Assembly (NCBI GenBank): GCA_964423025.1
Contig: CAYRDH010000007.1
Coordinates: 1-24,000 of the forward strand
Length of the DNA stretch: 24,000 bases
Reading direction: 5' to 3'
Source: an uncultured Candidatus Saccharibacteria bacterium
GTDB taxonomy: Bacteria > Patescibacteriota > Dojkabacteria > SC72
How positions within the stretch are numbered: position 1 is the first letter of the stretch; each line of letters begins with the position of its first letter. The notes below the pieces were generated by a model. It ran no database searches and had not been told where the DNA came from. It saw nothing but the letters and a program-made list of their open reading frames with translations. The position numbers were made by a program, and so were the translations under genes. Of this stretch, positions 8,437 to 20,622 are shown piece by piece.

Positions 8437-9009
8437 CTACCAAAAAGGCCAATAAATGAGAATTGAAATACTTAAGGGAATAAGGGTTCCGAGGGTTACT
8501 TGGGTTAGGGTGTGTTTGTTAAGTGCTATTCTAGACCAGCCGACGAATGGTGTTAGTACAAAAAGAAACATAAGTGCAGGAGTGGTTGGGAATAGATAGA
8601 TTAGTGTGGCAAACAGTATTGTGGAATATGTCATATGTCCAGATATTTTCCAGTAGAAGGTTATTATGGTGACTATGGTAGAGACGACAAAGAGATTCAT
8701 GGTTACTCTGGTTAAGGTTTCTACATTTAGGGCTAATACAAAGAAGAATATTACACCAAACAATATTGTTATTGTTGTAAAGTAAGGAGGTCTTTCCTTT
8801 CTGTCTGTGAATTCATAGTCTGTCACCTTCCCTAATTTTTTAAGCGTTAAGTAGGGGAGTATGGGGGAGAGTAGGTACAGGAAGAAGAGAATTATTTTTT
8901 GTGTGATTGGTATGGGCGAAGAGAATACGGCAATGGTTGGTGTTAGTATCATGGTCATAAAACCATTGAACATTTCGGATATTATTCTTGCGATTTTCGT
9001 TTTGGCCAT
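8437..9009 (-). CDS. PAP2-superfamily membrane phosphatase (190 aa)
   Basis: Polytopic membrane protein carrying PAP2-like motifs KERPP, SGH (KISGHM) and SRxxxxxH (SRIALNKH). Confidence 0.6.
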   Translation of the reverse strand: MAKTKIARIISEMFNGFMTMILTPTIAVFSSPIPITQKIILFFLYLLSPILPYLTLKKLGKVTDYEFTDRKERPPYFTTITILFGVIFFFVLALNVETLTRVTMNLFVVSTIVTIITFYWKISGHMTYSTILFATLIYLFPTTPALMFLFVLTPFVGWSRIALNKHTLTQVTLGTLIPLSISILIYWPFW

Positions 9010-9014
9010 CGTTT

Positions 9015-9042
9015 ATTCTAGCGGAAAAGTTTGTGTATGCAA
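9015..9042 (-). promoter_or_regulatory. Putative promoter of the PAP2-gatA-nrnA gene string; would give a leaderless mRNA
   Basis: The minus strand reads TTGCAT (9042-9037), a 16-nt spacer, TAGAAT (9020-9015), 5 nt, then the ATG at 9009. Confidence 0.4.
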
Positions 9043-9057
9043 AGTGTGAGGGTTTTT

Positions 9058-9114
9058 GGTTAGGAGAGGGATATGTTTTGTGTGTTTTAAGCACTGGTAT
9101 ATTCTCTCCTAACC
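9058..9114 (-). repeat. Long hairpin, third member of the GTTAG/CTAAC hairpin family; no ribozyme attached
   Basis: GGTTAGGAGAG..ATAT (9058-9074) pairs with ATAT.CTCTCCTAACC (9099-9114), about 16 bp with one bulge. It has the same base sequence (GTTAG/CTAAC) and the same purine-rich/pyrimidine-rich arm layout as the hairpins at 9711-9774 and 10168-10226. It lies 60 nt after the stop of the 9174..9545 gene. Confidence 0.7.
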
Positions 9115-9173: not shown

Positions 9174-9545
9174 CTATTTAAGTGAATCTCGGAGATTTTC
9201 CAACTTGGTCTCGACTTCTTCGAAGTAAACTTCCTCGCAGGAATCACTTGCGATGGAATCTCGAAGTTTGGTTATTCTTTTTAGGCATTGGACATTCTCA
9301 ATGATTCTCTGGATTTCTGAACGATGCGATCCCTGAACAACATAGAAATCGTTTTGGAAGGTATCCAAGAAATTGAGAATAACCCAGACATAGCCAGCGA
9401 TAACTGCAGCTATTCCGAAGAAGAGCATGCCAATGTCATCTAGCTGTATCGTGTAGATCAGAAACCATGTACAACCGGCTGTGATGATGAGCCTTATCAG
9501 TGTATTAGCTGTAAAGGTTAGTACAAACTTTTTCCAAATGGACAT
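9174..9545 (-). CDS. Small two-TM membrane protein with a C-terminal coiled-coil-like tail (123 aa), gene C of the array
   Basis: ORF track. Strong SD context CCAAGGAGGTTAAAAATG. Two hydrophobic helices, then a charged helical tail. Confidence 0.75.
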   Translation of the reverse strand: MSIWKKFVLTFTANTLIRLIITAGCTWFLIYTIQLDDIGMLFFGIAAVIAGYVWVILNFLDTFQNDFYVVQGSHRSEIQRIIENVQCLKRITKLRDSIASDSCEEVYFEEVETKLENLRDSLK

Positions 9546-9603: not shown

Positions 9604-9612
9604 ATTATACCA
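9604..9612 (-). promoter_or_regulatory. Extended -10 element TGGTATAAT upstream of gene C
   Basis: The minus strand reads TGGTATAAT. A homologous TGATATAAT occupies the equivalent position in the other repeat unit (10062-10070). No convincing -35. Confidence 0.4.
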
Positions 9613-9656
9613 AAATACAGGCCTATAGCATATATCTTCTTTGATAAGCAGGACGG

Positions 9657-9710
9657 AGTAAGTTTCGCTTCATTTCAGAAGCTCATCAGATTTGTAACAA
9701 ATGACTTACT
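9657..9710 (-). ncRNA. Hammerhead self-cleaving ribozyme, type III topology (copy 1)
   Basis: The minus strand reads AGUAAGUC-AUUUG-UUA-CAAAU-CUGAUGA-GCUUC-UGAAAU-GAAGC-GAA-ACUUACU. The parts are: stem III 5' strand plus GUC cleavage triplet (C17 is the complement of 9703); stem I of 5 bp closed by a triloop; core C3-A9 as CUGAUGA; stem II of 5 bp starting G10.1-C11.1 with a hexaloop; core G12 A13 A14; the A15.1-U16.1 pair; and a 7-bp stem III. Every invariant core position is present. Confidence 0.88.
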
Positions 9711-9774
9711 AGTTAGAGGAGGAATATATTGTTGAGATGTACATTTACATGTACCAATATATCCTCCTCTAACT
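9711..9774 (-). repeat. Long hairpin immediately 5' of hammerhead copy 1 on the coding strand
   Basis: AGTTAGAGGAGGAATATATTG (9711-9731) pairs with CAATATATCCTCCTCTAACT (9755-9774), 20 bp with one bulged A. The apical part adds GTACAT/ATGTAC (9739-9744 with 9749-9754). There is no linker before ribozyme stem III (9710). The hairpin starts 8 nt after the stop of the 61-aa gene. The T-run (9774-9778) is on the + strand side only. Confidence 0.8.
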
Positions 9775-9782
9775 TTTTAGGT

Positions 9783-9968
9783 TTATCTGCCCCAGATTCT
9801 TTTGTATGCATCGAAAAAAATAAATGAGACACCAATTATGACAATAATTGTTATTATGACATAGCTTGGTCCCAAACTAACTGCGTAGTGCATGCTATTC
9901 ACCATAGAATATATGGCGACCATTACAAGGAGTGTAACGGGTATGGAAAGGAGAATTTTTCTCTTCAT
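9783..9968 (-). CDS. Very small two-TM membrane protein (61 aa), gene B of the array
   Basis: ORF track. Strong SD context CCCAGGAGGTAAAAATG. Two hydrophobic helices and a basic C terminus (KRIWGR). Confidence 0.7.
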   Translation of the reverse strand: MKRKILLSIPVTLLVMVAIYSMVNSMHYAVSLGPSYVIITIIVIIGVSFIFFDAYKRIWGR

Positions 9969-10061
9969 TTTTACCTCCTGGGTAGAATGAGTTTTAATGA
10001 GCAGATATTATTTATCCTTAAATAGAAAAAGATCATATTAATAGGATATTAACCTATATAC

Positions 10062-10070
10062 ATTATATCA
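10062..10070 (-). promoter_or_regulatory. Extended -10 element TGATATAAT upstream of gene B
   Basis: The minus strand reads TGATATAAT. It lies in a stretch (10052-10091) that aligns at roughly 70% identity with 9596-9633, which carries the other -10 element. Confidence 0.4.
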
Positions 10071-10113
10071 AAATATCAACCTATAGTATAGCAATGCTGA
10101 TTCCTGTCTTTGG

Positions 10114-10167
10114 GGTAAGTTTCGCTTCATTTCAGAAGCTCATCAGATTTGTAACAAATGACTTACT
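10114..10167 (-). ncRNA. Hammerhead self-cleaving ribozyme, type III topology (copy 2)
   Basis: 10115-10173 is 100% identical to 9658-9716 (59 nt). Core and stems match copy 1. C17 is the complement of 10160. The outermost stem III pair is an A-C mismatch, leaving 6 bp. Confidence 0.88.
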
Positions 10168-10226
10168 AGTTAGGGGAGAGATTGTTTTTGTTATTGTACC
10201 TATATGTACCAATTTCTCCCCTAACT
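10168..10226 (-). repeat. Long hairpin immediately 5' of hammerhead copy 2 on the coding strand
   Basis: AGTTAGGGGAGAGATTG (10168-10184) pairs with CAATTTCTCCCCTAACT (10210-10226), 17 bp including one G-U. The base AGTTAG/CTAACT is identical to copy 1, and the inner stem differs by compensatory changes. Apical GTAC/GTAC pairing is possible. A T-rich run (TTTTCTTCT) follows on the + strand side only. Confidence 0.8.
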
Positions 10227-10299
10227 TTTCTTCTCCAAGGTAAGGTTTGCTAAGACACTTAGCTAAGAGAATTATGCAGGGTTCTTTGTTTGGGCTTAG

Positions 10300-10749
10300 T
10301 TATTTTTGCTCAATGAGCTTGTCGATTTTTCTTTCCAACGATTGAAGCTTGTATTTGAGGTCATCCTCTGACATCTTTCGTTCAAGCATAGAGACTTTAA
10401 ACTCTGACTTTGACAGGATGTCGTTAACGTAATTGGATGACTGTCGGAAGCGAATCTGCCAGAGGTCTCTTTGTATATGACGAAAGTCGTCATCATGTCT
10501 ACGAGCGAAGGTTATCCAATAAGTGTACCAAGCAATAAAGATGTATCCAGCGACTGCGAAAGCAATGCGGATAGCTGACTGCTTTTCTATTCCTGAAAGT
10601 AAAAGCTCAGAGAATTGGTACAACATGAGTATAGCCCAAGCAACGTAGAGTAGTCCTAGAAACACCTCGGAAAGGGTTTCAAACAGTATTGTGTGTTCCG
10701 AGACAAAGTTTTTAATCTTGTCCCAAAGATTTTTAAAGAAGTTTTTCAT
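10300..10749 (-). CDS. Small two-TM membrane protein with a C-terminal coiled-coil-like tail (149 aa from the ATG at 10749), gene A of the array
   Basis: ORF 10300..10809, trimmed to the ATG preceded by CACGGAGGTGTAATAATG. Begins MKNFFKNLW. Two hydrophobic helices, then a charged heptad-like tail. Weak resemblance to gene C (an AGY motif in TM2, then xTF..DF..Q). Confidence 0.75.
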   Translation of the reverse strand: MKNFFKNLWDKIKNFVSEHTILFETLSEVFLGLLYVAWAILMLYQFSELLLSGIEKQSAIRIAFAVAGYIFIAWYTYWITFARRHDDDFRHIQRDLWQIRFRQSSNYVNDILSKSEFKVSMLERKMSEDDLKYKLQSLERKIDKLIEQK

Positions 10750-10870
10750 TATTACACCTCCGTGAAGTGTTGTGGTGAGTTGATAAGCCAAGGCCAAAGA
10801 ACCATGCATTTTTTAAAGATCGTTTTCCTTGTTAAACAAGGTTTAAACAGGGTTATTATATAATAATTAG

Positions 10871-10898
10871 GATTAAAAATAAACCCATAGAATGGGTT
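10871..10898 (-). terminator. Putative intrinsic terminator (minus strand)
   Basis: The minus strand reads AACCCA-UUCUA-UGGGUU followed by UAUUUUUAAUC. The stem is only 6 bp. It lies 27 nt after the stop of the 47-aa ORF. Confidence 0.45.
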
Positions 10899-10924: not shown

Positions 10925-11068
10925 TTATTCTGGCTTTGCTATCCAAGATGGATCAGATATTCCTTCTGTGAGGATATCTTGGGAAGTGTCTACAGGAAGT
11001 TCCTGCTTAGGTAGGAATACTGGAACAAAGAATGTATTTAATATTGTTATGATTGCTAGTATTAACAT
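10925..11068 (-). CDS. Small membrane protein (47 aa), below the ORF-track cutoff and probably leaderless
   Basis: Hand translation of the minus strand gives MLILAIITILNTFFVPVFLPKQELPVDTSQDILTEGISDPSWIAKPE, then TAA. It has an N-terminal hydrophobic helix. TGGTATAAT ends 5 nt before the ATG, and a terminator-like hairpin follows. Confidence 0.45.
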   Translation of the reverse strand: MLILAIITILNTFFVPVFLPKQELPVDTSQDILTEGISDPSWIAKPE

Positions 11069-11096: not shown

Positions 11097-13004
11097 TTAA
11101 AAGGTTTGCTCCTGCTCTTCATCTTTTCTTGTTAGTAGGGCTATGAAGATTATTAACAGGGGAATTATTATTACTAGAGATATCCAGAGCATACTGTTAT
11201 CTTTATCCTCAGTACTCTCTCCTTTTACGTCACCGCTTGTGTAATCTAAAGGATAGTTGTTGGTATTCATGTCTGTTTGTTCCATTAGCATAGGGTCGTT
11301 GTCCATTTCTAATATTTCATTCTCTTCTGGGACTTCATTTGTGGTCTCTTCCTCGGGCTTTTGAATAGGAGGAGGCTCCTCTGTGTTTTCTTCTGTAGTA
11401 GTATTTGTTTCTGTTTCTGTATTGTTTGTGGTTGTTGTAGTTGAGGTGTTGGCTCCGAGTACGGGTTCTTCTGTCTCCTGAGGAGGGGGTGGAGGTTCGG
11501 GGATAGTAAAGTTTGTGGATTTAACTTCTTCGTTTCCTGCGTTATCTGTGGCTCTTATGTAGAGGGTGTATGTCCCTGGTTCGTTATTTACAAGTGGATC
11601 TAAGGGTTCTCCTGGTAGATATGTAGTCCATTGTGTTAAAGAACCAATCCTCATTTCTGTGTTTTTAATGCCAGAGAGGTTGTCAGAGGTGGATACAGAC
11701 TGTAAAATTCTGTCCTCTGAGATATTTATACTCCCTATTACTGGTCTTGTGGCATCGTACATAATGTTTTCTACAAGGGGTGCTAATTCAAGATCTTCTG
11801 TGTTGTCTGCAAGGTCTTTGGATTGTGCTTTTATACAGTAGGTACCATCTTCTAGGGAATATTCGTAATGTGACCAATTAAAGGGTTCGGTTTCTTTGTC
11901 TAATATCTCTTTTGTTGTTAATTGAAGCCACTCCTCATTACAGATTTCTGTTTCTGTGTCATATGTTGTGTAATATATGGAGACTGTATCTAGGGTGTAA
12001 TTGTCTGTAGAGTAACCGCTAATATTTAATGGAGCTTTGCTTATATGGCCACTAGCAGGAGAAGTTATTGAGGTTGTTGGTGTTTCTGCGTCTATTGTTA
12101 GAGTACAGGATTCGGATGTCTCTCCCTTATTCCCTCCTCTATCTACAGCAGTGACTACAAAGTCATATGTGTTCTGGTCTGGGATTAGGTCCTCTTCTTG
12201 GATATCGTAGTAGAGGTTTTCAGAGGTTTTCTCCCAAGGGTCTTGTAGTTCTCCTTCTTCTAGGGGTGCTTCTGGATTAAGTTCTGTCTCTGTTGGTTTG
12301 AGTGTTATTAGGTAGTGGTCAACGATTGGAACGTATATGGTAGCGGGTATCGGGGGGACTTCGAGAGGTGGCTCTAGAGGATCCCAATTGTCATTTGACT
12401 TCTCCCAGTGAATCCTAATCTCAGAGTTGCCTGTGTAAGTGTTGCAGCCGAGCAAACTCTCTGGGTCAGAAGTGTATCCATTGTACACATTTACTCCCCT
12501 TACTTTCTCAGGAGGTTTGTTGTCTATAATAAACAGAGTTGTGTCGTATTGTCCTTCTGGTTTGGAGGGATTTCCTGCCTCATCTATTGCAACCACGGCA
12601 TACCAATATATCCCTTCCATAAGGTCTTCGTCATAGCCTGTTTCTGGGTGTCTTGTTGTTCCTACATATGTAAATGGTTCTTCTAATATAGGGATAAGGC
12701 CATAGTGGTATGGTATGTATAGGTAGGTCATATCCTCTGGCAGGGTTACGTTGTCTTCTGCTGGTTCCCATTCGACATAGAAGTTTTGGGAATTAAGAAC
12801 TGTTTCTGGTTCCCTAGGAGGGAATATGTGGGTTGGTACTGTTGGTGGTTGTGTGTCTATGATGGTTTCTGTTTCAGTGGGTGGTGTGGATGCTTCTTGT
12901 GCTAGTGTGTTAAAGGAGTTTAGGGAGAGGAGGTATATAAACGCAGAAAAAAAGGCTATTAAGAGTAGAATTCTAAGGTAATTGTTTCTACGTGACCTTA
13001 TCAT
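11097..13004 (-). CDS. Large cell-surface protein (635 aa): signal peptide, Ig-like/fibronectin-like beta domains, acidic Thr/Glu/Pro linker, C-terminal TM anchor
   Basis: N-terminal signal-like YLRILLLIAFFSAFIYLLSL. Recurrent domain-boundary motifs (IDNKPPE, IDAETPT, YDATRPV). Low-complexity T/N/E/P tract. C-terminal WISLVIIIPLLIIFIALLTRKDEEQEQTF. Confidence 0.85.
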   Translation of the reverse strand: MIRSRRNNYLRILLLIAFFSAFIYLLSLNSFNTLAQEASTPPTETETIIDTQPPTVPTHIFPPREPETVLNSQNFYVEWEPAEDNVTLPEDMTYLYIPYHYGLIPILEEPFTYVGTTRHPETGYDEDLMEGIYWYAVVAIDEAGNPSKPEGQYDTTLFIIDNKPPEKVRGVNVYNGYTSDPESLLGCNTYTGNSEIRIHWEKSNDNWDPLEPPLEVPPIPATIYVPIVDHYLITLKPTETELNPEAPLEEGELQDPWEKTSENLYYDIQEEDLIPDQNTYDFVVTAVDRGGNKGETSESCTLTIDAETPTTSITSPASGHISKAPLNISGYSTDNYTLDTVSIYYTTYDTETEICNEEWLQLTTKEILDKETEPFNWSHYEYSLEDGTYCIKAQSKDLADNTEDLELAPLVENIMYDATRPVIGSINISEDRILQSVSTSDNLSGIKNTEMRIGSLTQWTTYLPGEPLDPLVNNEPGTYTLYIRATDNAGNEEVKSTNFTIPEPPPPPQETEEPVLGANTSTTTTTNNTETETNTTTEENTEEPPPIQKPEEETTNEVPEENEILEMDNDPMLMEQTDMNTNNYPLDYTSGDVKGESTEDKDNSMLWISLVIIIPLLIIFIALLTRKDEEQEQTF

Positions 13005-13063
13005 TATATGGGCAGTAATTTATTGCTATTAAAACGATCTTAGGGGTATTTTAGCCCCATTAA

Positions 13064-13092
13064 AATATAACTTCTTTAGTATGTTGTGTCAA
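13064..13092 (-). promoter_or_regulatory. Putative sigma70-type promoter for the 635-aa surface protein gene
   Basis: The minus strand reads TTGACA (13092-13087), a 17-nt spacer, then TATATT (13069-13064), about 60 nt upstream of the ATG at 13004. Confidence 0.5.
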
Positions 13093-13110
13093 TTAAGTTT
13101 TACTTTATTT

Positions 13111-13140
13111 AAAGAAAAAGACAGGGTTAACCCCCTGTCT
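13111..13140 (-). terminator. Intrinsic terminator after the giant surface protein gene (minus strand)
   Basis: The minus strand reads AGACAGGG-GGUUAA-CCCUGUCU (8 bp, GC-rich) followed by UUUUCUUU. It starts about 20 nt after the stop at 13162. Confidence 0.7.
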
Positions 13141-13161
13141 TCTCTTGGCAGTTTTTAGATA

Positions 13162-16100
13162 TTAGAACTGTGGTTCGTTATCCTCTTTTCTTCTTTTCCA
13201 GAGGATTAGGAAGATAGCTAGTATAGGGAGTATGACTAATGGATATATCCACCATTTAGTTTGTTCTCCTTCTGTAGTTTCTTCTTGATTAGTTGGTTGT
13301 TCATTATTATCTTCTTCACCTTTAACAGCAGTAGTATCTTCTGTTATTGTTTCTTCCTCAGGAGTTTGTTGTTCCTCAGTATCTAATAGATCTGTTTGAG
13401 AATAGAGGTAGCCACCTGTACCAAGGGGAGAGTTATATGTTCCAGTAGGGGGTTGTTTCGAAGAGGGTGTGGTACTGTCAGTCCCATCGGATATCCCATC
13501 TATACTTCTATTTTCCGTTGTTGCTCCTGCTACTGCACCTACTGTTATATCTACAGAGTCTGTTGATGTGTCTCCATCTGCATCTGTTACGGTTACTGTG
13601 CATGTATATGATCCTTCTGTTGTTGGATCAAATATTGTTTGTGCATCTGTTCCTGTACAATCTCCTGACCATAGGTATGTGAATGTTGGATTACCATTGG
13701 TTACTGTAGTAGAGAGTACGATTGGATCGTCTCCTGCTGTTACTTCTGTGTCTGTAGGATTTATTGTTATCGTCGGTGTATTGTTTTGTATTGTTACTAT
13801 GAAGGTTTGAACATCACTTTCATTTTCTGCTTTGTCTGTAGCGTAGTAGGAGATTTGATATACACCTTCCGGTAGCACAGAAAGATTTATTGTAGTAAAT
13901 GAAGATCCTTGCCAGTTTTCTATAGCTTTTCTTACTTCATCTGCTAGAGAGAATTCATTATTAATGCTCAGATTACTTGCGTCAATGGAAACACAATATT
14001 CAGTAGATGTTCCTAGAGTTCCTGAGGCATCTTTTATTGTTATACATACTTGATCTAATTCACCGTAGCTGTCTGTAAGTGTTACAGTGTCTGTTGGGAA
14101 TGATTCTCCTTCGGTTAAGGTCATATCTGAATGACTAGCAATTACAGGGAGGGTATTATCAACTGTTACTTCTATTTCCTCATGATGATAATTTCCTGCT
14201 AGATCTTTTCCTGCAGCTCTAAGAGTATATACACCATTAAGTTCACTTCCTGTACTTTCATCTGATAGTCGTGGATTTAATGAATCTAGAGTCCAATCAA
14301 AGCTTGTTCCATTGGTATCTATTTTGTGGTTTTGTTTATTAGCTTCTGCGTCTTGTATTGTCTGCTCATCGCTCCACCACCAGAAATTTATGTAGTCGCA
14401 ATCTCCAAGAGTACCATCACATGTTACATCTAAAGAAATGTTTCCTGATAATAAATCTAAGTCTTGTGGAGTATTCCAATTGATTGTAGGAGGTGTATTA
14501 TCAACGTCAATTTGATAAGTAGCATATTTTATGTTTTCAGAGTAATCTCTAATTGATGCTCGAATGGTATATGTTCCACTTTCAAGTTCAGATATATCTA
14601 TATCTGTAGCATTATGGCTAACATTAAGTGTTTCTGGTGTAATATCGTGAGCTAATCTTCCAATTTCAATAACTGCAGAACCAGTATTACTTTCATTATA
14701 GATGTTTGTAGCTACTGTTCTAGCACCTGACAAATTGTCTGTTCCAGATACTGTAAAACTTAGTTTTTTGTCAGTTATATTAACATTAGTAATTTTTACA
14801 GTAGGTTTTGTTTTATCTACTACAAAATGTAATCCTAATACATCTCTATATTGATTTATTATAGGTATATTCCATCTTGTAGTATTGTCATATACTTGAT
14901 GTGCCATATAGTATTCTCCATCCGGTAGAGACTCTATACATTTAGTAAAACTGATTTTTTCAGTAAGATCATATGTATTACCAGTTAGACCCTCTATCAA
15001 GTTTGGACTCTTTCTCCAACTGCAGTATGCTTGCTTGTCATTAGCACTGAATCTAAATGATCCGTCATCTTGTGCTTGGAAGATTACAAATGAGTCTTGG
15101 TATAATCCAGAAGAGGGAATAGTATCTGCATATTGAGCTGTAAAGGAAAGTTGGTTAATTCCTTTGACATAAGTAATCGGATTTGCTGTTTCGTCTATGG
15201 TAATTTCATTGTTATAGTGTGTGTATATAGCTGTTGGTGGGTTGGTATCTATGAATATGTCTTGAGATACAGTTTTTGTATTCCCCGCTTTGTCTGTCCC
15301 CACTATTTTTAAGGTATTTATTCCATCTTCAAGTGCTGGTAATTCTACTATCCAATATGTACCACCATCGTATTCTGCTGTTTGTTCATTTACAGTAACA
15401 GAGTTCATTCCTGATAACAAATCAGATGCTGATATTAATACTATTGGTGTATTATCGCTTGTATTTATATTTAGTGTATCTACAGGAACTGATGGATATC
15501 TGTAATCATAGTGTCTAAGGCCTTCAAAGGATACTGTTGGCTCTACTGTATCCATTGTAAAATATCTAATTGCTTCAGGGTTTACATTCCCATATCCAGC
15601 ATTATCGCCTGCATGAATACGAAGCATATATTTTGTACCATTCACCAAGTTTCCAGTATCTATAGTACATAAAATATCCGCATGTTTGTTTTCATTACTG
15701 TATGTCAGTGCTGTTGTTCCAGATTTACAACCAGACTTCCAAGTTCCCCCATCTTGTGTTCTTACATCAAAGAATACGGACCTTAAAGCTACATTATCAT
15801 CTGCAATTCCTTTTACATCAAAATCACCGTTTACATATGAATTATTGGCAGGTGCAGAAATTAGTTTTGCTGTTGGACCGTGAGTATCATAATAGATTAC
15901 AAAAGGTGCTGAGGGAGCAGAAACTCCATTTTTATTTACTGCTATTACCTGGTATGAGTATCTACCATTGCCGTGCGCTCCAAAGCCGTTATATGTTTTT
16001 AACCACGCGTTCGTATTAGGACCTTGATAACTTAATTTTGTTGTCCCATCTGGGAAAGTTCCCAAAATACGATAACCTGTTACTAGATCAATAGGATTAG

Positions 16101-18300
16101 ATTGCCACAATAGTACAAGGTTATTACCGTTTGGTTTTGCAGTTTTGTTAATTGTGCTTCCGTTAAGTAAGTCTTGATTGTCATATTGAAACTTTGCAGT
16201 TAATCCTGTTGGAGTAGATGGTAGATCACTACTTAAGTATGTCAAATTGGCATCTTTGTACCATGGTTCGTAATCGACATTAGAACTTACTGAGTTCACT
16301 TTCCCGTTGGGATTTGTGTCCTCATTGTATGGTCCACTTAGATCTCCCCACCAATTATATCTAGCATCTAGTTGCGTCTCAGACAAATTTACAACATCTC
16401 CATTTAAAGATAGGTTATTTGCTTTCAAATCTCCACTAGCACCAGATCTAACTACAATTGCACTGTGGTAAGTATCCGAATCTGCGGTATGACCATTTTT
16501 GTCTACTGAATATTTCCCTCCATCTAAAATCATATCTTGGCCACTACCAGCGCTAGAACTTGCAAATCGTACAGCATAGGTGTCATTATCATTCCCTTGA
16601 GCAATAACAGAAATATCTGTGTTTTTTGCAACTAAATTCTTCCCACCCTGAAAATTAATACCACTTTTACAATTTGAAATGGTAGTGTCAACTACATCTA
16701 ATTGTGCATATTTCCCCTGAATTGCAGTATAATAACAATTTTTAAAGTTACTGTTTTGTACTGTTACTGTAGCATCTAAATCATCACTCATAATCCCTCT
16801 TACACTACCACTTACAAATAAGCCAGACCCATTAAAATTAGAGTTCTCTACATATAATTTATCTACATTGTCTATATGTATACTGTCTACTGGATCGTTT
16901 GTTGGGACTCTAAACTCCAAATGATTAACATTAACTGTTCCTGCTGTGTCAACTGTAAAACCACCATGAATAACAGGTGGTTTTTCTTGAACACCTATTA
17001 AAGTTAGAGGTTTATCTATCTCTACATTTTCGTTATAAGTTCCGTAGTAAATATCTAAGATGTCATCATTGCTAGCAGAGTCTACAGCAGCTTGGATTGT
17101 GCCAAAAATAGTTGGTATTATTCTTCTAGTTTGACTTCTAACAATGATTGAACCATCAAATTCGTTTTGTGAAAGTATTGTCTTTAGTATCCTTTCATCA
17201 TTAAGAGGCTCGATAGTTATTTGCTTTTGATTATTTTGAAAAATGTTCTTTTCAATTCTGTTCTTTTCACTATTGATTAAATACATACCTAATCCATTAT
17301 TAAGAAATCGGTTATTAATAAACAAACACTCTGATGACTTTTCAACTAAAATACCACCCTTTTCTGAATTACTTTCAACAATGGTTAAGCCGTTTATTTC
17401 TACATTATTTGTTTCCCCAATATGAATAGTTGGTTCACTTGTCTTTTTCCCAATAATTACGGCTTCTTTTGTTTGAGGGTCATCTAAAAGAGCTAGAAGT
17501 CTTACCGGATGATTAATGTTTAGGTTTTCACTTTTATAAACTCCATCTTTAACACATATTGTTAATCTTTCGCCACTGTCCTTACTTTTATCTATTGCCT
17601 CTTGTATAGATTCTATATCAGTAGGAACAGTAATATCACATGAGACTGCTGTCTCAACTTGAACAGGAGCAGGAGAAGGTTTAACAGGAAGGATAGAGCT
17701 CACTATATAAATACTAAAATGCTCCAACCCTTTTATTTCTATTACATCTTCATTAACTATTAATTTATTATCTATACTATTATATATTTCTCCATCCTCT
17801 GTGTATTTAACCTCTACACCATCTCCTAACGTATTAGGAAGAGTAAGATCATATGTAAATGATCCATTACTCATAGTAGAAGTTATATCCCAACCATAAT
17901 CATCTGAGGTATTTAATTTTTCTTTTTCTTCTTCTGTTAGTTCAACCTTACTAATAACTAAATTCCCCTCTTCAGTAATACTAGTAAACCTAACTCTAAC
18001 ATTTTCATCATCTGGGTATACATATTCTTCTAATTCAACATTACTTACTGTATACACCCCACCCTCATATGTAGACTTAGGAATATCCCCTTCTAATATC
18101 TCAGGATTTGCTATTTCCTCTGGATCAGAGATTCCTTCTTCCAGAATGTCCTCACTGATGTCCATTACCATAGGACCATCATAAGAATAGTCATCAATCA
18201 CGGTCCCTAGAGCTTGTGTGGAGGGTAGGAAAGTATATAAAGTAACAAACAAGGTAACAAATACCTTATTAAAAGGAAAACGTTTGAGAAATTTTCTCAT
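13162..18300 (-). CDS. Giant cell-surface protein (about 1712 aa): signal peptide, right-handed parallel beta-helix region, many Ig-like domains, PKD-like domain, acidic linker, C-terminal TM anchor
   Basis: ORF 13162..18342. I prefer the ATG at 18300 (MRKFLKRFPFNKVFVTLFVTLYTFL, signal-like) over the upstream TTG. Beta-helix-type repeats such as NNRFLNNGLGMYLINSEKNRIEKNIFQNNQ. Recurrent D-x-T-x-P-T domain boundaries. PKD-like YTCTVTVTDADGDTSTDSVDITV. C-terminal WIYPLVILPILAIFLILWKRRKEDNEPQF. Confidence 0.9.
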   Translation of the reverse strand: MRKFLKRFPFNKVFVTLFVTLYTFLPSTQALGTVIDDYSYDGPMVMDISEDILEEGISDPEEIANPEILEGDIPKSTYEGGVYTVSNVELEEYVYPDDENVRVRFTSITEEGNLVISKVELTEEEKEKLNTSDDYGWDITSTMSNGSFTYDLTLPNTLGDGVEVKYTEDGEIYNSIDNKLIVNEDVIEIKGLEHFSIYIVSSILPVKPSPAPVQVETAVSCDITVPTDIESIQEAIDKSKDSGERLTICVKDGVYKSENLNINHPVRLLALLDDPQTKEAVIIGKKTSEPTIHIGETNNVEINGLTIVESNSEKGGILVEKSSECLFINNRFLNNGLGMYLINSEKNRIEKNIFQNNQKQITIEPLNDERILKTILSQNEFDGSIIVRSQTRRIIPTIFGTIQAAVDSASNDDILDIYYGTYNENVEIDKPLTLIGVQEKPPVIHGGFTVDTAGTVNVNHLEFRVPTNDPVDSIHIDNVDKLYVENSNFNGSGLFVSGSVRGIMSDDLDATVTVQNSNFKNCYYTAIQGKYAQLDVVDTTISNCKSGINFQGGKNLVAKNTDISVIAQGNDNDTYAVRFASSSAGSGQDMILDGGKYSVDKNGHTADSDTYHSAIVVRSGASGDLKANNLSLNGDVVNLSETQLDARYNWWGDLSGPYNEDTNPNGKVNSVSSNVDYEPWYKDANLTYLSSDLPSTPTGLTAKFQYDNQDLLNGSTINKTAKPNGNNLVLLWQSNPIDLVTGYRILGTFPDGTTKLSYQGPNTNAWLKTYNGFGAHGNGRYSYQVIAVNKNGVSAPSAPFVIYYDTHGPTAKLISAPANNSYVNGDFDVKGIADDNVALRSVFFDVRTQDGGTWKSGCKSGTTALTYSNENKHADILCTIDTGNLVNGTKYMLRIHAGDNAGYGNVNPEAIRYFTMDTVEPTVSFEGLRHYDYRYPSVPVDTLNINTSDNTPIVLISASDLLSGMNSVTVNEQTAEYDGGTYWIVELPALEDGINTLKIVGTDKAGNTKTVSQDIFIDTNPPTAIYTHYNNEITIDETANPITYVKGINQLSFTAQYADTIPSSGLYQDSFVIFQAQDDGSFRFSANDKQAYCSWRKSPNLIEGLTGNTYDLTEKISFTKCIESLPDGEYYMAHQVYDNTTRWNIPIINQYRDVLGLHFVVDKTKPTVKITNVNITDKKLSFTVSGTDNLSGARTVATNIYNESNTGSAVIEIGRLAHDITPETLNVSHNATDIDISELESGTYTIRASIRDYSENIKYATYQIDVDNTPPTINWNTPQDLDLLSGNISLDVTCDGTLGDCDYINFWWWSDEQTIQDAEANKQNHKIDTNGTSFDWTLDSLNPRLSDESTGSELNGVYTLRAAGKDLAGNYHHEEIEVTVDNTLPVIASHSDMTLTEGESFPTDTVTLTDSYGELDQVCITIKDASGTLGTSTEYCVSIDASNLSINNEFSLADEVRKAIENWQGSSFTTINLSVLPEGVYQISYYATDKAENESDVQTFIVTIQNNTPTITINPTDTEVTAGDDPIVLSTTVTNGNPTFTYLWSGDCTGTDAQTIFDPTTEGSYTCTVTVTDADGDTSTDSVDITVGAVAGATTENRSIDGISDGTDSTTPSSKQPPTGTYNSPLGTGGYLYSQTDLLDTEEQQTPEEETITEDTTAVKGEEDNNEQPTNQEETTEGEQTKWWIYPLVILPILAIFLILWKRRKEDNEPQF

Positions 18301-18405
18301 TAAAAAATAATTAATAAATTTATTCTTTTTAATGAGAACCAACTAGGGGCATAGTAGTCCCCATTATTTATGCATATTAAAATATAGACCTTTTAAGAAA
18401 GGGTG

Positions 18406-20622
18406 TCAATTTTTAAGTGACACTTCTGTTACACTATCATCCTTCTTAGTAATAACAAAAACCCTATGCAATGCCCTAGTAATACCCACATACAACAACC
18501 TAATACTCAACTCATCCTCATCATAATAATTACTATTTAAATCTGCAAAAATAACACTATCAAACTCCAAACCCTTAGCATTCTCAATAGGAAGAACCTG
18601 CAAACCACCCTTATAATCAAACTCCTTATAACTAACCACCTGCCTCTCTATAACACCCTCATACTCCTTAAAAATAGAATAAAGATTATCTGCATGCTCC
18701 CTATTCCTACAAAGAAGAGCACAAGTAACTGCCCCCTTCTTAAACTGATCCTTTATTAAAGATACCAACTCTTTTATTTTATCCTTACTTAGATCTTTAA
18801 TGTCTTTATCATATTCCAATATCCCAACCTCATCACCATGCCTTAAAACTGCTTCTGGGAGCTTGTAAGACTTAGGAAATCTACCTTCAAATATCTTGTT
18901 TGCAAAATCTACAATCTCTATCGTTGTCCTATAACACCTCTGAAGTTGGTAATATTCTGTATCCTTATTCGTAATACCTTTAACAAGATTAATAACATCT
19001 TCCCAATCCCTAATGTAAAAAGGAGCAATTATGGACTGTGCTAAGTCCCCAGCTATCGTTATATTCCCACCCTTAGCTACCATAATTAAAGTAGCTAATT
19101 CTACAAAACTCATATCCTGAGCCTCATCTAGCATTACATAATCTTTCTCGTAAGACTTAGTTCCATTTATCTTAAGATGAAGATAAACCATAGGAGCCAA
19201 ATCCTCCATTCTGTAATTCCTAATACCCCCACTCTGTGTAAGCCCCTCAAGAGAGTACTTGGAAACCTCTTTATTAACCAAATCTGTTCTAAAGAGACCC
19301 TTGTAGAGAGAATAAATATTACACTTCCTTCTAAAGTAAGAAGAAATATCTCTTTTAAGATTCATATCTATGTCATTTGTGGCATCATAGAAACCTGTTC
19401 TTCCTTGTTTAAATTGCTTCTTAGCAAAAGCATAGTCCATAGCAAGGTCTAAACGCTCGATCATGTCTATATTAGGAAATTCCTTCTTAAGTTCGTAATA
19501 CCTCTTCTCAATAATATCTTTTCTAGAGTAGGGGATGTTTTCTAAAAGTTCCTCTTCAAATTTCTCAAAATATCTTTCAAGGACATTTAAGAATTCTAAA
19601 GAACCCTTGTAGGCCTTAATATCTAAGTTAGGTTTCTTATTAGATATGGTGAACCTATTATCCCAACCTAACACAGACTTACCCCAGAACAGATAAGTTT
19701 CGGTATCTACCTTACTAACACCAAGATTAGGAAGAACATCTGATACATAGTCTATAAACATCTGGTTAGGAGCAATGATTAAACTATTATTGGAGCTGAT
19801 CTGCTCTTTATGTGCGTAGAATATGTATGCCAATCTGTGTAGAAGTATTGTTGTTTTACCACTACCTGCTACACCCTGTATTAGAATTGGCTTGTTTAGA
19901 CCATCTCGGATAATTGAATTCTGTTGTGCCTGAATAGTAGATACAATGTCTTGGAGCTTCTTACCTAACCTCTCATTTAGTTGTGAAAGGAGGAATTCAT
20001 CTGCTGCAACATTTCCTGACTTAGCGTCATATATCCCGCTTATTCGACCTCTAGATATCTGAAACTGTCTTTTCTGTATTAAATCTCCTCTCCTTTCCCC
20101 ATTAGGTGCTTGAAAAGCAACATCATCTTTAGGACCACTATTTTGGTAGTAAAGATTAGCAACCGGAGATCTCCAGTCAGTTATTAAGGGGATATGTGTC
20201 TGTTCATCTATTAAGGCAAATTTTCCTATGTAAAGGGAAAGAGGTTTCTCTGCTCTAGAATCATATGGCTTAAACTGAATCTTACCGAAGTAGGGGGAAT
20301 CTAGTGCAATAATCTCGTTATTAGTCCTGTCAACAATCTCTCTAATCTTGTTTAGTATCTGGTTATATATCTTCTTAGCAGCAGCCTTTTCATCTAGGTC
20401 ACTCTCTGTGTCTATGAGGTATATTTGGTGTTCTAATTCTTCCTGTAATTGTTCTAATCTCTGTATGAGGTTCTTAATGGAATCTCTTTTAATATGAATA
20501 ACTTTTTTAAGATTTGGGTATTCTTCCTCTTCTAGCGTAGAGAGGTTTGTTAAATCACTAAAATCCGCAACTTTGTCTACATCCCTATACAGAGGGTGTA
20601 AGTACTGTTTAAACGTTTGCAT
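18406..20622 (-). CDS. UvrD/Rep superfamily 1 helicase, HelD / helicase IV-like
   Basis: Walker A GVAGSGKTT and Walker B-like VMLDEAQD. An N-terminal region with ITDWRSPVANLYY, typical of HelD/helicase IV-type proteins. C-terminal LYVGITRA motif. Confidence 0.85.
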   Translation of the reverse strand: MQTFKQYLHPLYRDVDKVADFSDLTNLSTLEEEEYPNLKKVIHIKRDSIKNLIQRLEQLQEELEHQIYLIDTESDLDEKAAAKKIYNQILNKIREIVDRTNNEIIALDSPYFGKIQFKPYDSRAEKPLSLYIGKFALIDEQTHIPLITDWRSPVANLYYQNSGPKDDVAFQAPNGERRGDLIQKRQFQISRGRISGIYDAKSGNVAADEFLLSQLNERLGKKLQDIVSTIQAQQNSIIRDGLNKPILIQGVAGSGKTTILLHRLAYIFYAHKEQISSNNSLIIAPNQMFIDYVSDVLPNLGVSKVDTETYLFWGKSVLGWDNRFTISNKKPNLDIKAYKGSLEFLNVLERYFEKFEEELLENIPYSRKDIIEKRYYELKKEFPNIDMIERLDLAMDYAFAKKQFKQGRTGFYDATNDIDMNLKRDISSYFRRKCNIYSLYKGLFRTDLVNKEVSKYSLEGLTQSGGIRNYRMEDLAPMVYLHLKINGTKSYEKDYVMLDEAQDMSFVELATLIMVAKGGNITIAGDLAQSIIAPFYIRDWEDVINLVKGITNKDTEYYQLQRCYRTTIEIVDFANKIFEGRFPKSYKLPEAVLRHGDEVGILEYDKDIKDLSKDKIKELVSLIKDQFKKGAVTCALLCRNREHADNLYSIFKEYEGVIERQVVSYKEFDYKGGLQVLPIENAKGLEFDSVIFADLNSNYYDEDELSIRLLYVGITRALHRVFVITKKDDSVTEVSLKN

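Follow-up and report, generated by a model that had tools for sequence, protein, structure and literature searches.

The window analysed here is a 24,000-nt stretch (contig CAYRDH010000007.1, positions 1 to 24,000) of the chromosome of an uncultured, ultra-small member of Candidatus Dojkabacteria, within the candidate phyla radiation (CPR). It contains two predicted self-cleaving RNA elements, type III hammerhead ribozymes, which lie in the same orientation on the minus strand and bracket a small gene. The span between their two cleavage sites (10159..9703, minus strand) is a 457-nt unit, here called cassette c61 after its 61-codon open reading frame (ORF). Upstream of it lies the conserved gene for a membrane protein (10300..10809), which we refer to as the anchor since it forms the upstream border of a variable gene array; downstream lie a second cassette, which encodes a 123-residue membrane protein (c123, 9174..9545), and the gene for a PAP2-like protein of 190 residues (8437..9009), which is syntenic in all relatives and forms the downstream border. 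Unless stated otherwise, the coordinates given below refer to features on the minus strand.

The 457-nt unit and its hammerheads

Both ribozymes were identified using the Rfam model RF00008 (Hammerhead_3), which has a curated gathering score of 48.5 bits. Hammerhead 1 (10167..10114; 57.8 bits, E 1.2e-10) and hammerhead 2 (9710..9657; 59.9 bits, E 3e-11) both exceeded this score, with matches spanning the full model (positions 1-54 of 54), and no further ribozymes or RNA families were found in the 24-kb window even at a permissive E<=1. The two elements are near-identical, the single difference being the last base. They form part of an exact 59-nt repeat (10173..10115 = 9716..9658), nested in a 67-nt direct repeat with a start-to-start distance of 457 nt. 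An earlier, sequence-only reading of this DNA had proposed same-polarity hammerheads at precisely this spacing, and in this it was correct. Cleavage is predicted between C10160 and A10159 in hammerhead 1 and between C9703 and A9702 in hammerhead 2. As judged from the Rfam alignment and the sequence, the core is canonical (CUGAUGA, GAA, C17 and an A15.1-U16.1 pair). Stems I and II are each 5 bp long and end in the loops UUA and UGAAAU, respectively, and stem III, of 6-7 bp, is open; with stems I and II closed, stem III open and a cleavable H17 present, the topology is that of type III.

Read in the direction of transcription, the unit begins AUUUGUUACA and finishes CUAGUAAGUC. It consists of the hammerhead body, the element TGATATAAT, a leader of ~88 nt, the Shine-Dalgarno sequence AGGAGG, the 61-aa ORF, a 64-nt hairpin and, at the 3' end, AGUAAGUC. 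The element TGATATAAT (10070..10062) is an extended -10 promoter that is present in all copies of c61, and would place the start of transcription near 10055. It is followed by the 5' untranslated region (UTR; 9969..10056), the Shine-Dalgarno site (9979..9974, verified in the sequence) and the ORF itself (9783..9968, with ATG at 9968 and TAA at 9785..9783), whose product has two hydrophobic segments, predicted to be transmembrane (TM). Within a database of 5.8 billion proteins this product has only two clusters, both from Dojkabacteria. The same unit is found in four relatives (L035, L036, L037 and L038) at 92-94% identity, and every part of the anatomy described previously, from the hammerhead body through the leader, Shine-Dalgarno site and two-TM ORF to the long hairpin, could be verified in the sequence. 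We consider the internal promoter very likely to be real, because it is conserved in every cassette and because an element of the same TGnTATAAT type drives a neighbouring, leaderless 47-aa gene.

The c61 5'UTR hardly varies: among relatives with 92% overall identity (a divergence of ~8%), one column in ~88 nt is variable; the ORF is less conserved, and 5 of 10 substitutions in c61 fall at first codon positions. A riboswitch-like structured leader was considered and rejected, as the predicted fold of the 5'UTR was no better than that of shuffled sequences (z = +0.49). In the case of the whole 457-nt species, the predicted fold (-118 kcal/mol, z = -4.97) is branched and mRNA-like, rather than rod-like. 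Most of its stability comes from the one hairpin, and stem III pairs the two ends together.

The hairpins at the gene ends are a consistent part of this arrangement. Hairpin 1 (10168..10226), an inverted repeat with a fold z-score of -5.2, lies at the 3' end of the anchor gene, immediately next to stem III of hammerhead 1, and is without a U-tract. Hairpin 2 (9774..9711; z-score -7.8) is the 64-nt 3'-end hairpin of c61 and accompanies the c61 ORF in all relatives. A terminator scan revealed no Rho-independent terminator at the cassette ends, where the hairpins run into AGUAAGUC and not into U residues; a canonical terminator does follow the neighbouring 47-aa gene (10898..10872), 0.7 kb upstream. 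A third hairpin of the same family (hairpin 3, 9059..9113) has no hammerhead after it. Since this hairpin and its counterpart in the genome of Dojkabacteria UBA2177 both occur without a hammerhead, the hairpin is a 3'-end element in its own right. Hairpin 3 stands just before the PAP2 promoter, as does the UBA2177 hairpin (L024), and in other lineages this position is occupied by a hairpin plus a hammerhead, a pattern that resembles a clean gain or loss of a ribozyme of ~60 nt.

Array architecture in relatives and selection on the RNA fold

We scanned the species-representative genomes of 185,579 species, together with a metagenome contig collection, for the pattern of this hammerhead subtype. 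The species representatives yielded four stretches on three contigs, all in CPR metagenome-assembled genomes (Candidatus Dojkabacteria UBA2177 and UBA4813, and one labelled Saccharibacteria), and the metagenome contigs yielded ten. Every copy was syntenic with the window, at one locus upstream of PAP2. The sequence-only reading had suggested looking for the same unit elsewhere, and in neither the genomes nor the metagenome contigs was a copy found at any other locus. In total, ~20 related contigs share a module composed of hairpin, hammerhead and extended -10 promoter.

These contigs have a common frame, which in order of transcription comprises the leaderless 47-aa ORF, an anchor of 146-169 aa, a variable region and the PAP2-like gene (190 aa), which has its own promoter. 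The variable region is occupied by 0-3 cassettes for small membrane proteins, whose number, order and identity vary by lineage. Writing A for the anchor and c for a cassette, each followed by its length in residues where useful, HH for a hammerhead, hp for an end with a hairpin only, and percentages for amino acid identity to the window, the window reads A, HH, c61, HH, c123-hp, PAP2. The contig L033 lacks the c61 unit (A, HH, c123-hp, PAP2), L035 and L037 have it as their sole cassette (A, HH, c61, HH, PAP2), and in NPIE (L027 + L036) it follows another one (A, HH, c89, HH, c61, HH, PAP2). UBA2177 carries three cassettes (A, HH, c83, HH, c86, HH, c89-hp, PAP2), while UBA4813 (A, HH, c87, HH, PAP2) and L032 (A, HH, c96, HH, PAP2) carry one each. 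L028 reads HH, c87, HH, c90, HH, and L046 reads c61, HH, c123-like (36%). Finally, L038-L044 have the composition A164 (73%), HH, c61 (92%), HH, c123 (98%), PAP2 (99%). Cassettes c86, c87, c89, c90 and c96 are paralogues, to which c61 and c123 are unrelated.

The cassettes are all built alike. The hammerhead body comes first, followed by the extended -10 promoter TGnTATAAT and a leader of 50-90 nt; next come a Shine-Dalgarno site and a small two-TM ORF, and a long hairpin and the 5' strand of stem III complete the unit. The TGnTATAAT element, Shine-Dalgarno site and two-TM ORF were present in all cassettes of all relatives. Because the hairpin variant is tied to the upstream ORF and the promoter variant to the downstream ORF, the joint between cassettes lies within the ribozyme. 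The idea of an excisable unit, put forward from the window alone, is borne out to the extent that c61 is a discrete module, one of several units that have been gained, lost and reordered between relatives and between co-occurring alleles, with joints inside the hammerhead repeat.

Selection on the fold was assessed with an alignment (A1) of 16 distinct modules of hairpin plus hammerhead, scored against the canonical structure of both. RNAalifold alone mis-paired stem I, so the canonical hammerhead structure was imposed and pairs were counted explicitly. Across the 16 modules 96.1% of cells were paired, as compared to 43-46% when the 3' partners were shifted by one column, and none of 500 shuffles matched the observed pairing or covariation score. 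Double substitutions were seen at eight pairs: one in each hammerhead stem (G-C to C-G in stem I, C-G to U-A in stem II and G-C to A-U in stem III), and compensatory changes at five pairs of the hairpin. The core is invariant apart from U7C, a natural variant in relatives at a position that tolerates change. The compensated stems and the invariant catalytic core across lineages show that selection has acted on the RNA fold and not on DNA homology alone. By these sequence measures the hammerheads look like working ribozymes, predicted to self-cleave, rather than decaying repeats.

Boundary elements, circles or recombination joints

The reading that we favour, with a probability of roughly 0.6, is that the hammerheads mark the boundaries within a ribozyme-punctuated array of autonomous cassettes for small membrane proteins, in which hairpin and ribozyme together form mRNA 3' ends and insulate each cassette from its neighbours. 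Each boundary module combines a U-tract-free hairpin belonging to the upstream gene, an abutting type III hammerhead, and an extended -10 element belonging to the downstream gene. RNA polymerase would pass through the hairpin, and the hammerhead would then cut 8 nt beyond it, leaving the upstream mRNA with a hairpin-protected 2',3'-cyclic-phosphate end, while any read-through RNA entering the next cassette would be severed and begin with a 5'-OH. Each cassette would thereby have an mRNA of its own, with separate expression and turnover, and the ribozyme would act as a substitute for a terminator or as an insulator. For c61, the main mRNA would extend from ~10055 to 9703 (roughly 353 nt), and the doubly cleaved 457-nt RNA would arise only from read-through transcripts that start upstream of hammerhead 1, at the promoter of the anchor gene. 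Transcripts started at the c61 promoter could not circularise by rebuilding the hammerhead, because the body of hammerhead 1 lies upstream and is missing from them. The sequence-only reading had taken the internal promoter to favour processing or insulation, and the conservation of this promoter in every cassette, with transcripts from it lacking the hammerhead body, strengthens that view. At the DNA level, the comparison shows that the repeated modules supply the homology by which recombination inserts or removes cassettes, duplicates them and changes their order.

Several points weigh against this interpretation. In vivo cleavage, transcription through the hairpin, the sites of initiation and what becomes of the products are deduced from sequence, and the c61 promoter was assigned by consensus and conservation. 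Moreover, with cassettes that have their own promoters, and with some gene ends that have only a hairpin, the value added by the ribozyme is not self-evident. Finally, one public contig, L004, is an exact match to the predicted circle, and could reflect more than processing.

L004 (ENA, assembled with MEGAHIT) has a length of 598 nt, and its two ends overlap exactly over 141 nt, the mark of a loop in this assembler; the remaining unique length of 457 nt matches the predicted circle at 100% identity. This one assembly loop is the sole evidence for a circular form. It contains the exact sequence expected if the two ends of the unit were joined to rebuild one intact hammerhead, as had been foreseen. 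The sample may be either DNA or RNA, and the contig could represent a tandem duplication, an excised DNA circle, an RNA circle or an assembly artefact; in the last case, a false loop could have been closed through the 59-nt repeat when k was small and the sample thinly covered. Other assemblies in the same series (ERZ272522xx-2723xx) contain contigs of up to 21 kb with genes on both strands, which makes the series look like DNA, and L004 is accordingly more likely to be a DNA junction or an assembly artefact. We put the odds that its junction is real at about even and, if it is real, DNA is the likelier source. Look-ups of neighbouring genes returned neither ERZ27252280 nor ERZ27252282, an outcome compatible with either low coverage or over-representation of the unit.

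Further evidence for DNA-level change comes from other contigs. In L011 (JGI), hairpin 1, a hammerhead and the c123 flank are joined directly, free of the unit and 100% identical to the window; its first 126 nt form a vertex common with the unit-bearing path, the pattern left where a k=127 assembly graph branches. L018, which stems from the same sample, runs on into the c61 leader, again with flanks that are 100% identical. Since L011 and L018 co-occur, alleles with zero units and with one unit coexist in one community. In addition, L002 differs from the window only within the ~50 nt that separate the hammerhead from the -10 element; L038 and L043 have that downstream segment in common but differ at U7, inside the hammerhead; and L038 is a mosaic, with a 73% identical anchor protein beside c123 and PAP2 proteins that are 98-99% identical. 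The breakpoints are scattered, some within the hammerhead and others close to the -10 element, and are not restricted to the cleavage site, as fits ordinary homologous recombination.

How far do these observations support a circular RNA? A read-through RNA could be cut twice and its 457-nt product closed by RtcB or by the reverse reaction of the hammerhead, either of which is chemically possible, and this would yield an exonuclease-resistant circular message for the 61-aa protein. The geometry is exact, the predicted fold brings the ends together through stem III so that they rebuild an intact hammerhead, and read-through is plausible because the hairpins lack U-tracts; L004, with its 141-nt terminal overlap, is 100% identical to the closed 457-nt circle. 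Nevertheless, we regard a circular mRNA as unlikely. The conserved promoter lies downstream of the hammerhead body, yielding transcripts that cannot circularise, and in several lineages the last cassette ends in a hairpin with no hammerhead downstream, so that its unit is not excisable; L004, from a DNA-like series, is better explained as a DNA junction or an artefact; and a search for circles from tandem bacterial hammerheads by Perreault et al. found none (PMC3088659). The coexistence of empty-site and one-unit alleles, the mosaic breakpoints, the paralogous tandem cassettes c86 and c89 in UBA2177 and the L004 loop could instead be taken to indicate a purely DNA-level module of 457 bp, in which the 59-nt repeats recombine to give deletions, duplications and transient DNA circles and the hammerheads are kept mainly as homology. 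As a sole account this too is improbable, since compensated stems and an invariant core point to selection on the RNA fold; DNA-level recombination complements the boundary-element explanation rather than replacing it.

A retrozyme- or integron-like mobile element, in which a dedicated enzyme inserts excised circles (DNA, or RNA copied to cDNA) at hammerheads or hairpins, would account for discrete cassettes in varying order. It would also bring to mind the long terminal repeats (LTRs) of retrozymes and Penelope elements, in which a ribozyme and a promoter likewise share a repeat, and the hairpin arms (GTTAGRG...CYCTAAC) loosely recall integron core sites. This is largely refuted, and we consider it very improbable. 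All copies in the GTDB genomes and metagenome contigs sit at the single syntenic locus upstream of PAP2, IMG/VR and phage records are without matches, and the window ORFs scanned contain no reverse transcriptase, integrase or transposase domain; breakpoints are not limited to the cleavage site. The core-like motifs are in the reverse order to those of attC, the cassettes have their own promoters and an integrase was not found in the window, for which reasons we rejected an attC reading of the hairpin. A further reading, in which L004 is real, the hammerhead is the joint of a CPR cassette exchange, and units excised at the ribozyme as circular mRNAs, or as DNA circles derived from or parallel to these, persist and re-enter arrays, seems to us quite unlikely. 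If true, however, it would constitute the first hammerhead circular mRNA encoded by a bacterial chromosome, or a ribozyme-delimited analogue of integron cassettes.

Known systems, neighbouring genes and host

The array of ribozyme-bounded cassettes belongs to a kind known since 2011, the clustered bacterial hammerheads; what is new is the CPR host, the chromosomal context, the three-part module and the documented turnover. Clustered hammerheads flank single genes in bacterial prophages, where processing was shown in vitro and no circles were found (PMC3088659); processing of polycistronic RNA was proposed as their role, and spliced or circular products were also considered (Perreault et al. 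2011, PLoS Comput Biol, PMC3088659). The likeness lies in same-strand hammerheads that bracket single genes or short blocks of variable identity (PMC3088659). In contrast to the prophage clusters, the locus described here is on a Dojkabacterial chromosome, with no phage genes found; its ribozyme has a hairpin fused to it upstream and a promoter downstream, as three fixed parts; and the presence, absence and reshuffling of cassettes at the ribozyme joints can be documented.

Retrozymes and Penelope-like LTRs are similar in that direct repeats with a hammerhead and a promoter flank a unit, and in that double cleavage yields 5'-OH and 2',3'-cyclic phosphate ends from which the ribozyme can be rebuilt. 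Retrozymes are, however, eukaryotic, dispersed, non-coding and mobilised by reverse transcriptase, with long LTRs, associated primer-binding-site (PBS) and polypurine-tract (PPT) sequences and target-site duplications, whereas this element is bacterial, confined to a single locus and protein-coding, with a shared repeat of ~60-135 nt and no reverse transcriptase found in the window. Nor does the unit look like a compact viroid-like RNA, as its predicted fold is branched and not rod-like, and it carries a conserved ORF and a Shine-Dalgarno site. The comparison with viroids and retrozymes in the sequence-only reading is not supported, given the single syntenic chromosomal locus, the lack of a reverse transcriptase or integrase in the window and the branched, coding RNA. 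With integron arrays the locus has in common a variable number and order of small ORFs, imperfect hairpin repeats between them and a fixed chromosomal platform. Integrons are defined by an adjacent IntI tyrosine recombinase, attC sites of the form RYYYAAC...GTTRRRY and promoterless cassettes; here the window has no IntI or other recombinase domain, the motif order of the hairpin is reversed, TGnTATAAT is present in each cassette, and the joint is in a ribozyme, with homologous recombination explaining the exchange. In the glmS ribozyme and in engineered insulators such as RiboJ, self-cleavage sets an mRNA end and uncouples a cistron from upstream transcription, as proposed for this array. The glmS ribozyme depends on a metabolite and acts in a 5'UTR, and RiboJ is synthetic, whereas here the ribozyme lies 3' of a stabilising hairpin and before the next promoter.

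The locus extends hammerheads to CPR/Patescibacteria chromosomes; a literature search returned no co-mention of hammerheads and CPR or Patescibacteria among its top-ranked full-text hits. The question of what hammerheads do in bacteria dates back to their discovery there in 2011, and this locus offers an unusually clean natural comparison. Gene ends with a hairpin plus ribozyme can be set against ends with a hairpin only, one cassette can be followed beside differing neighbours, and both alleles are available in one community; these contrasts render the insulator or 3'-end hypothesis and the circular-RNA hypothesis directly testable. It also illustrates that a ribozyme-containing repeat can serve as the seam of a hypervariable small-membrane-protein array, which may matter to the surface biology of these episymbionts.

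Turning to the host, the window is part of a Dojkabacterial chromosome and not of a phage. A phage or prophage origin was tested and rejected: PHROGs and Pfam searches on ~20 ORFs identified no phage module and no integrase, and neither blastn against 50,697 phage records nor the pattern scan of IMG/VR returned anything. The cassette proteins themselves had no match in Pfam, PHROGs, NCBIfam or PADLOC. The window also encodes a GatA-type amidase, a DHH/DHHA1 phosphoesterase, an M23 peptidase, a GH18 enzyme, an iPGM phosphoglycerate mutase and a UvrD-like helicase.

For the anchor gene, the 169-aa ORF probably has its true start at ATG 10749 (MKNFFKNLW...); relatives encode 146-149 aa from the equivalent of this ATG, with a Shine-Dalgarno site before the start. 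A 66-aa ORF that overlaps the anchor (10296-10496) looks spurious. The next cassette, c123, has its extended -10 promoter TGGTATAAT (9604..9612) 3' of hammerhead 2. It is absent in L035, L037 and NPIE, and elsewhere occurs in versions that are 52% or 36% identical. The protein is only 52% identical in L033, where the flanking DNA is ~87% identical to the window, and 36% in L046. The cassette proteins evolve very fast relative to their flanks, which, together with the first-position substitutions in c61, suggests diversifying or relaxed selection.

The 47-aa ORF (10925-11068) starts 5 nt past a TGGTATAAT-type -10 element, and PAP2 starts 5 nt past the TAGAAT of its own promoter (TTTGCA-17-TAGAAT, 9043..9015). 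Because their starts follow the -10 hexamers by only 5 nt, both genes are apparently leaderless, unlike the cassette genes, which have long leaders and strong Shine-Dalgarno sites. The segments of 40-50 nt between hammerhead and -10 element (10071-10113 and ~9613-9656) are hypervariable and strain-mosaic, and several assembly contigs end there. Many of these segments carry an inverted repeat of the CCTATA-C-TATAGG type at about -35, a possible operator site for a common regulator.

Further upstream, the regions 11097-18342 and 18406-20622 encode two giant proteins of surface type, of 635 and 1726 aa, whose domains include Big_13, NosD and beta-helix, and the UvrD-like helicase, which shows weak similarity to GajB and to the DRT helicase. 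With these giant surface proteins and the helicase directly upstream, the array lies in what appears to be a cell-surface or conflict-type neighbourhood. At the edge of the window, on the plus strand, positions 1-54 match the 3' part of a tRNA (Rfam, 36.9 bits), which was not called by ARAGORN because it is truncated.

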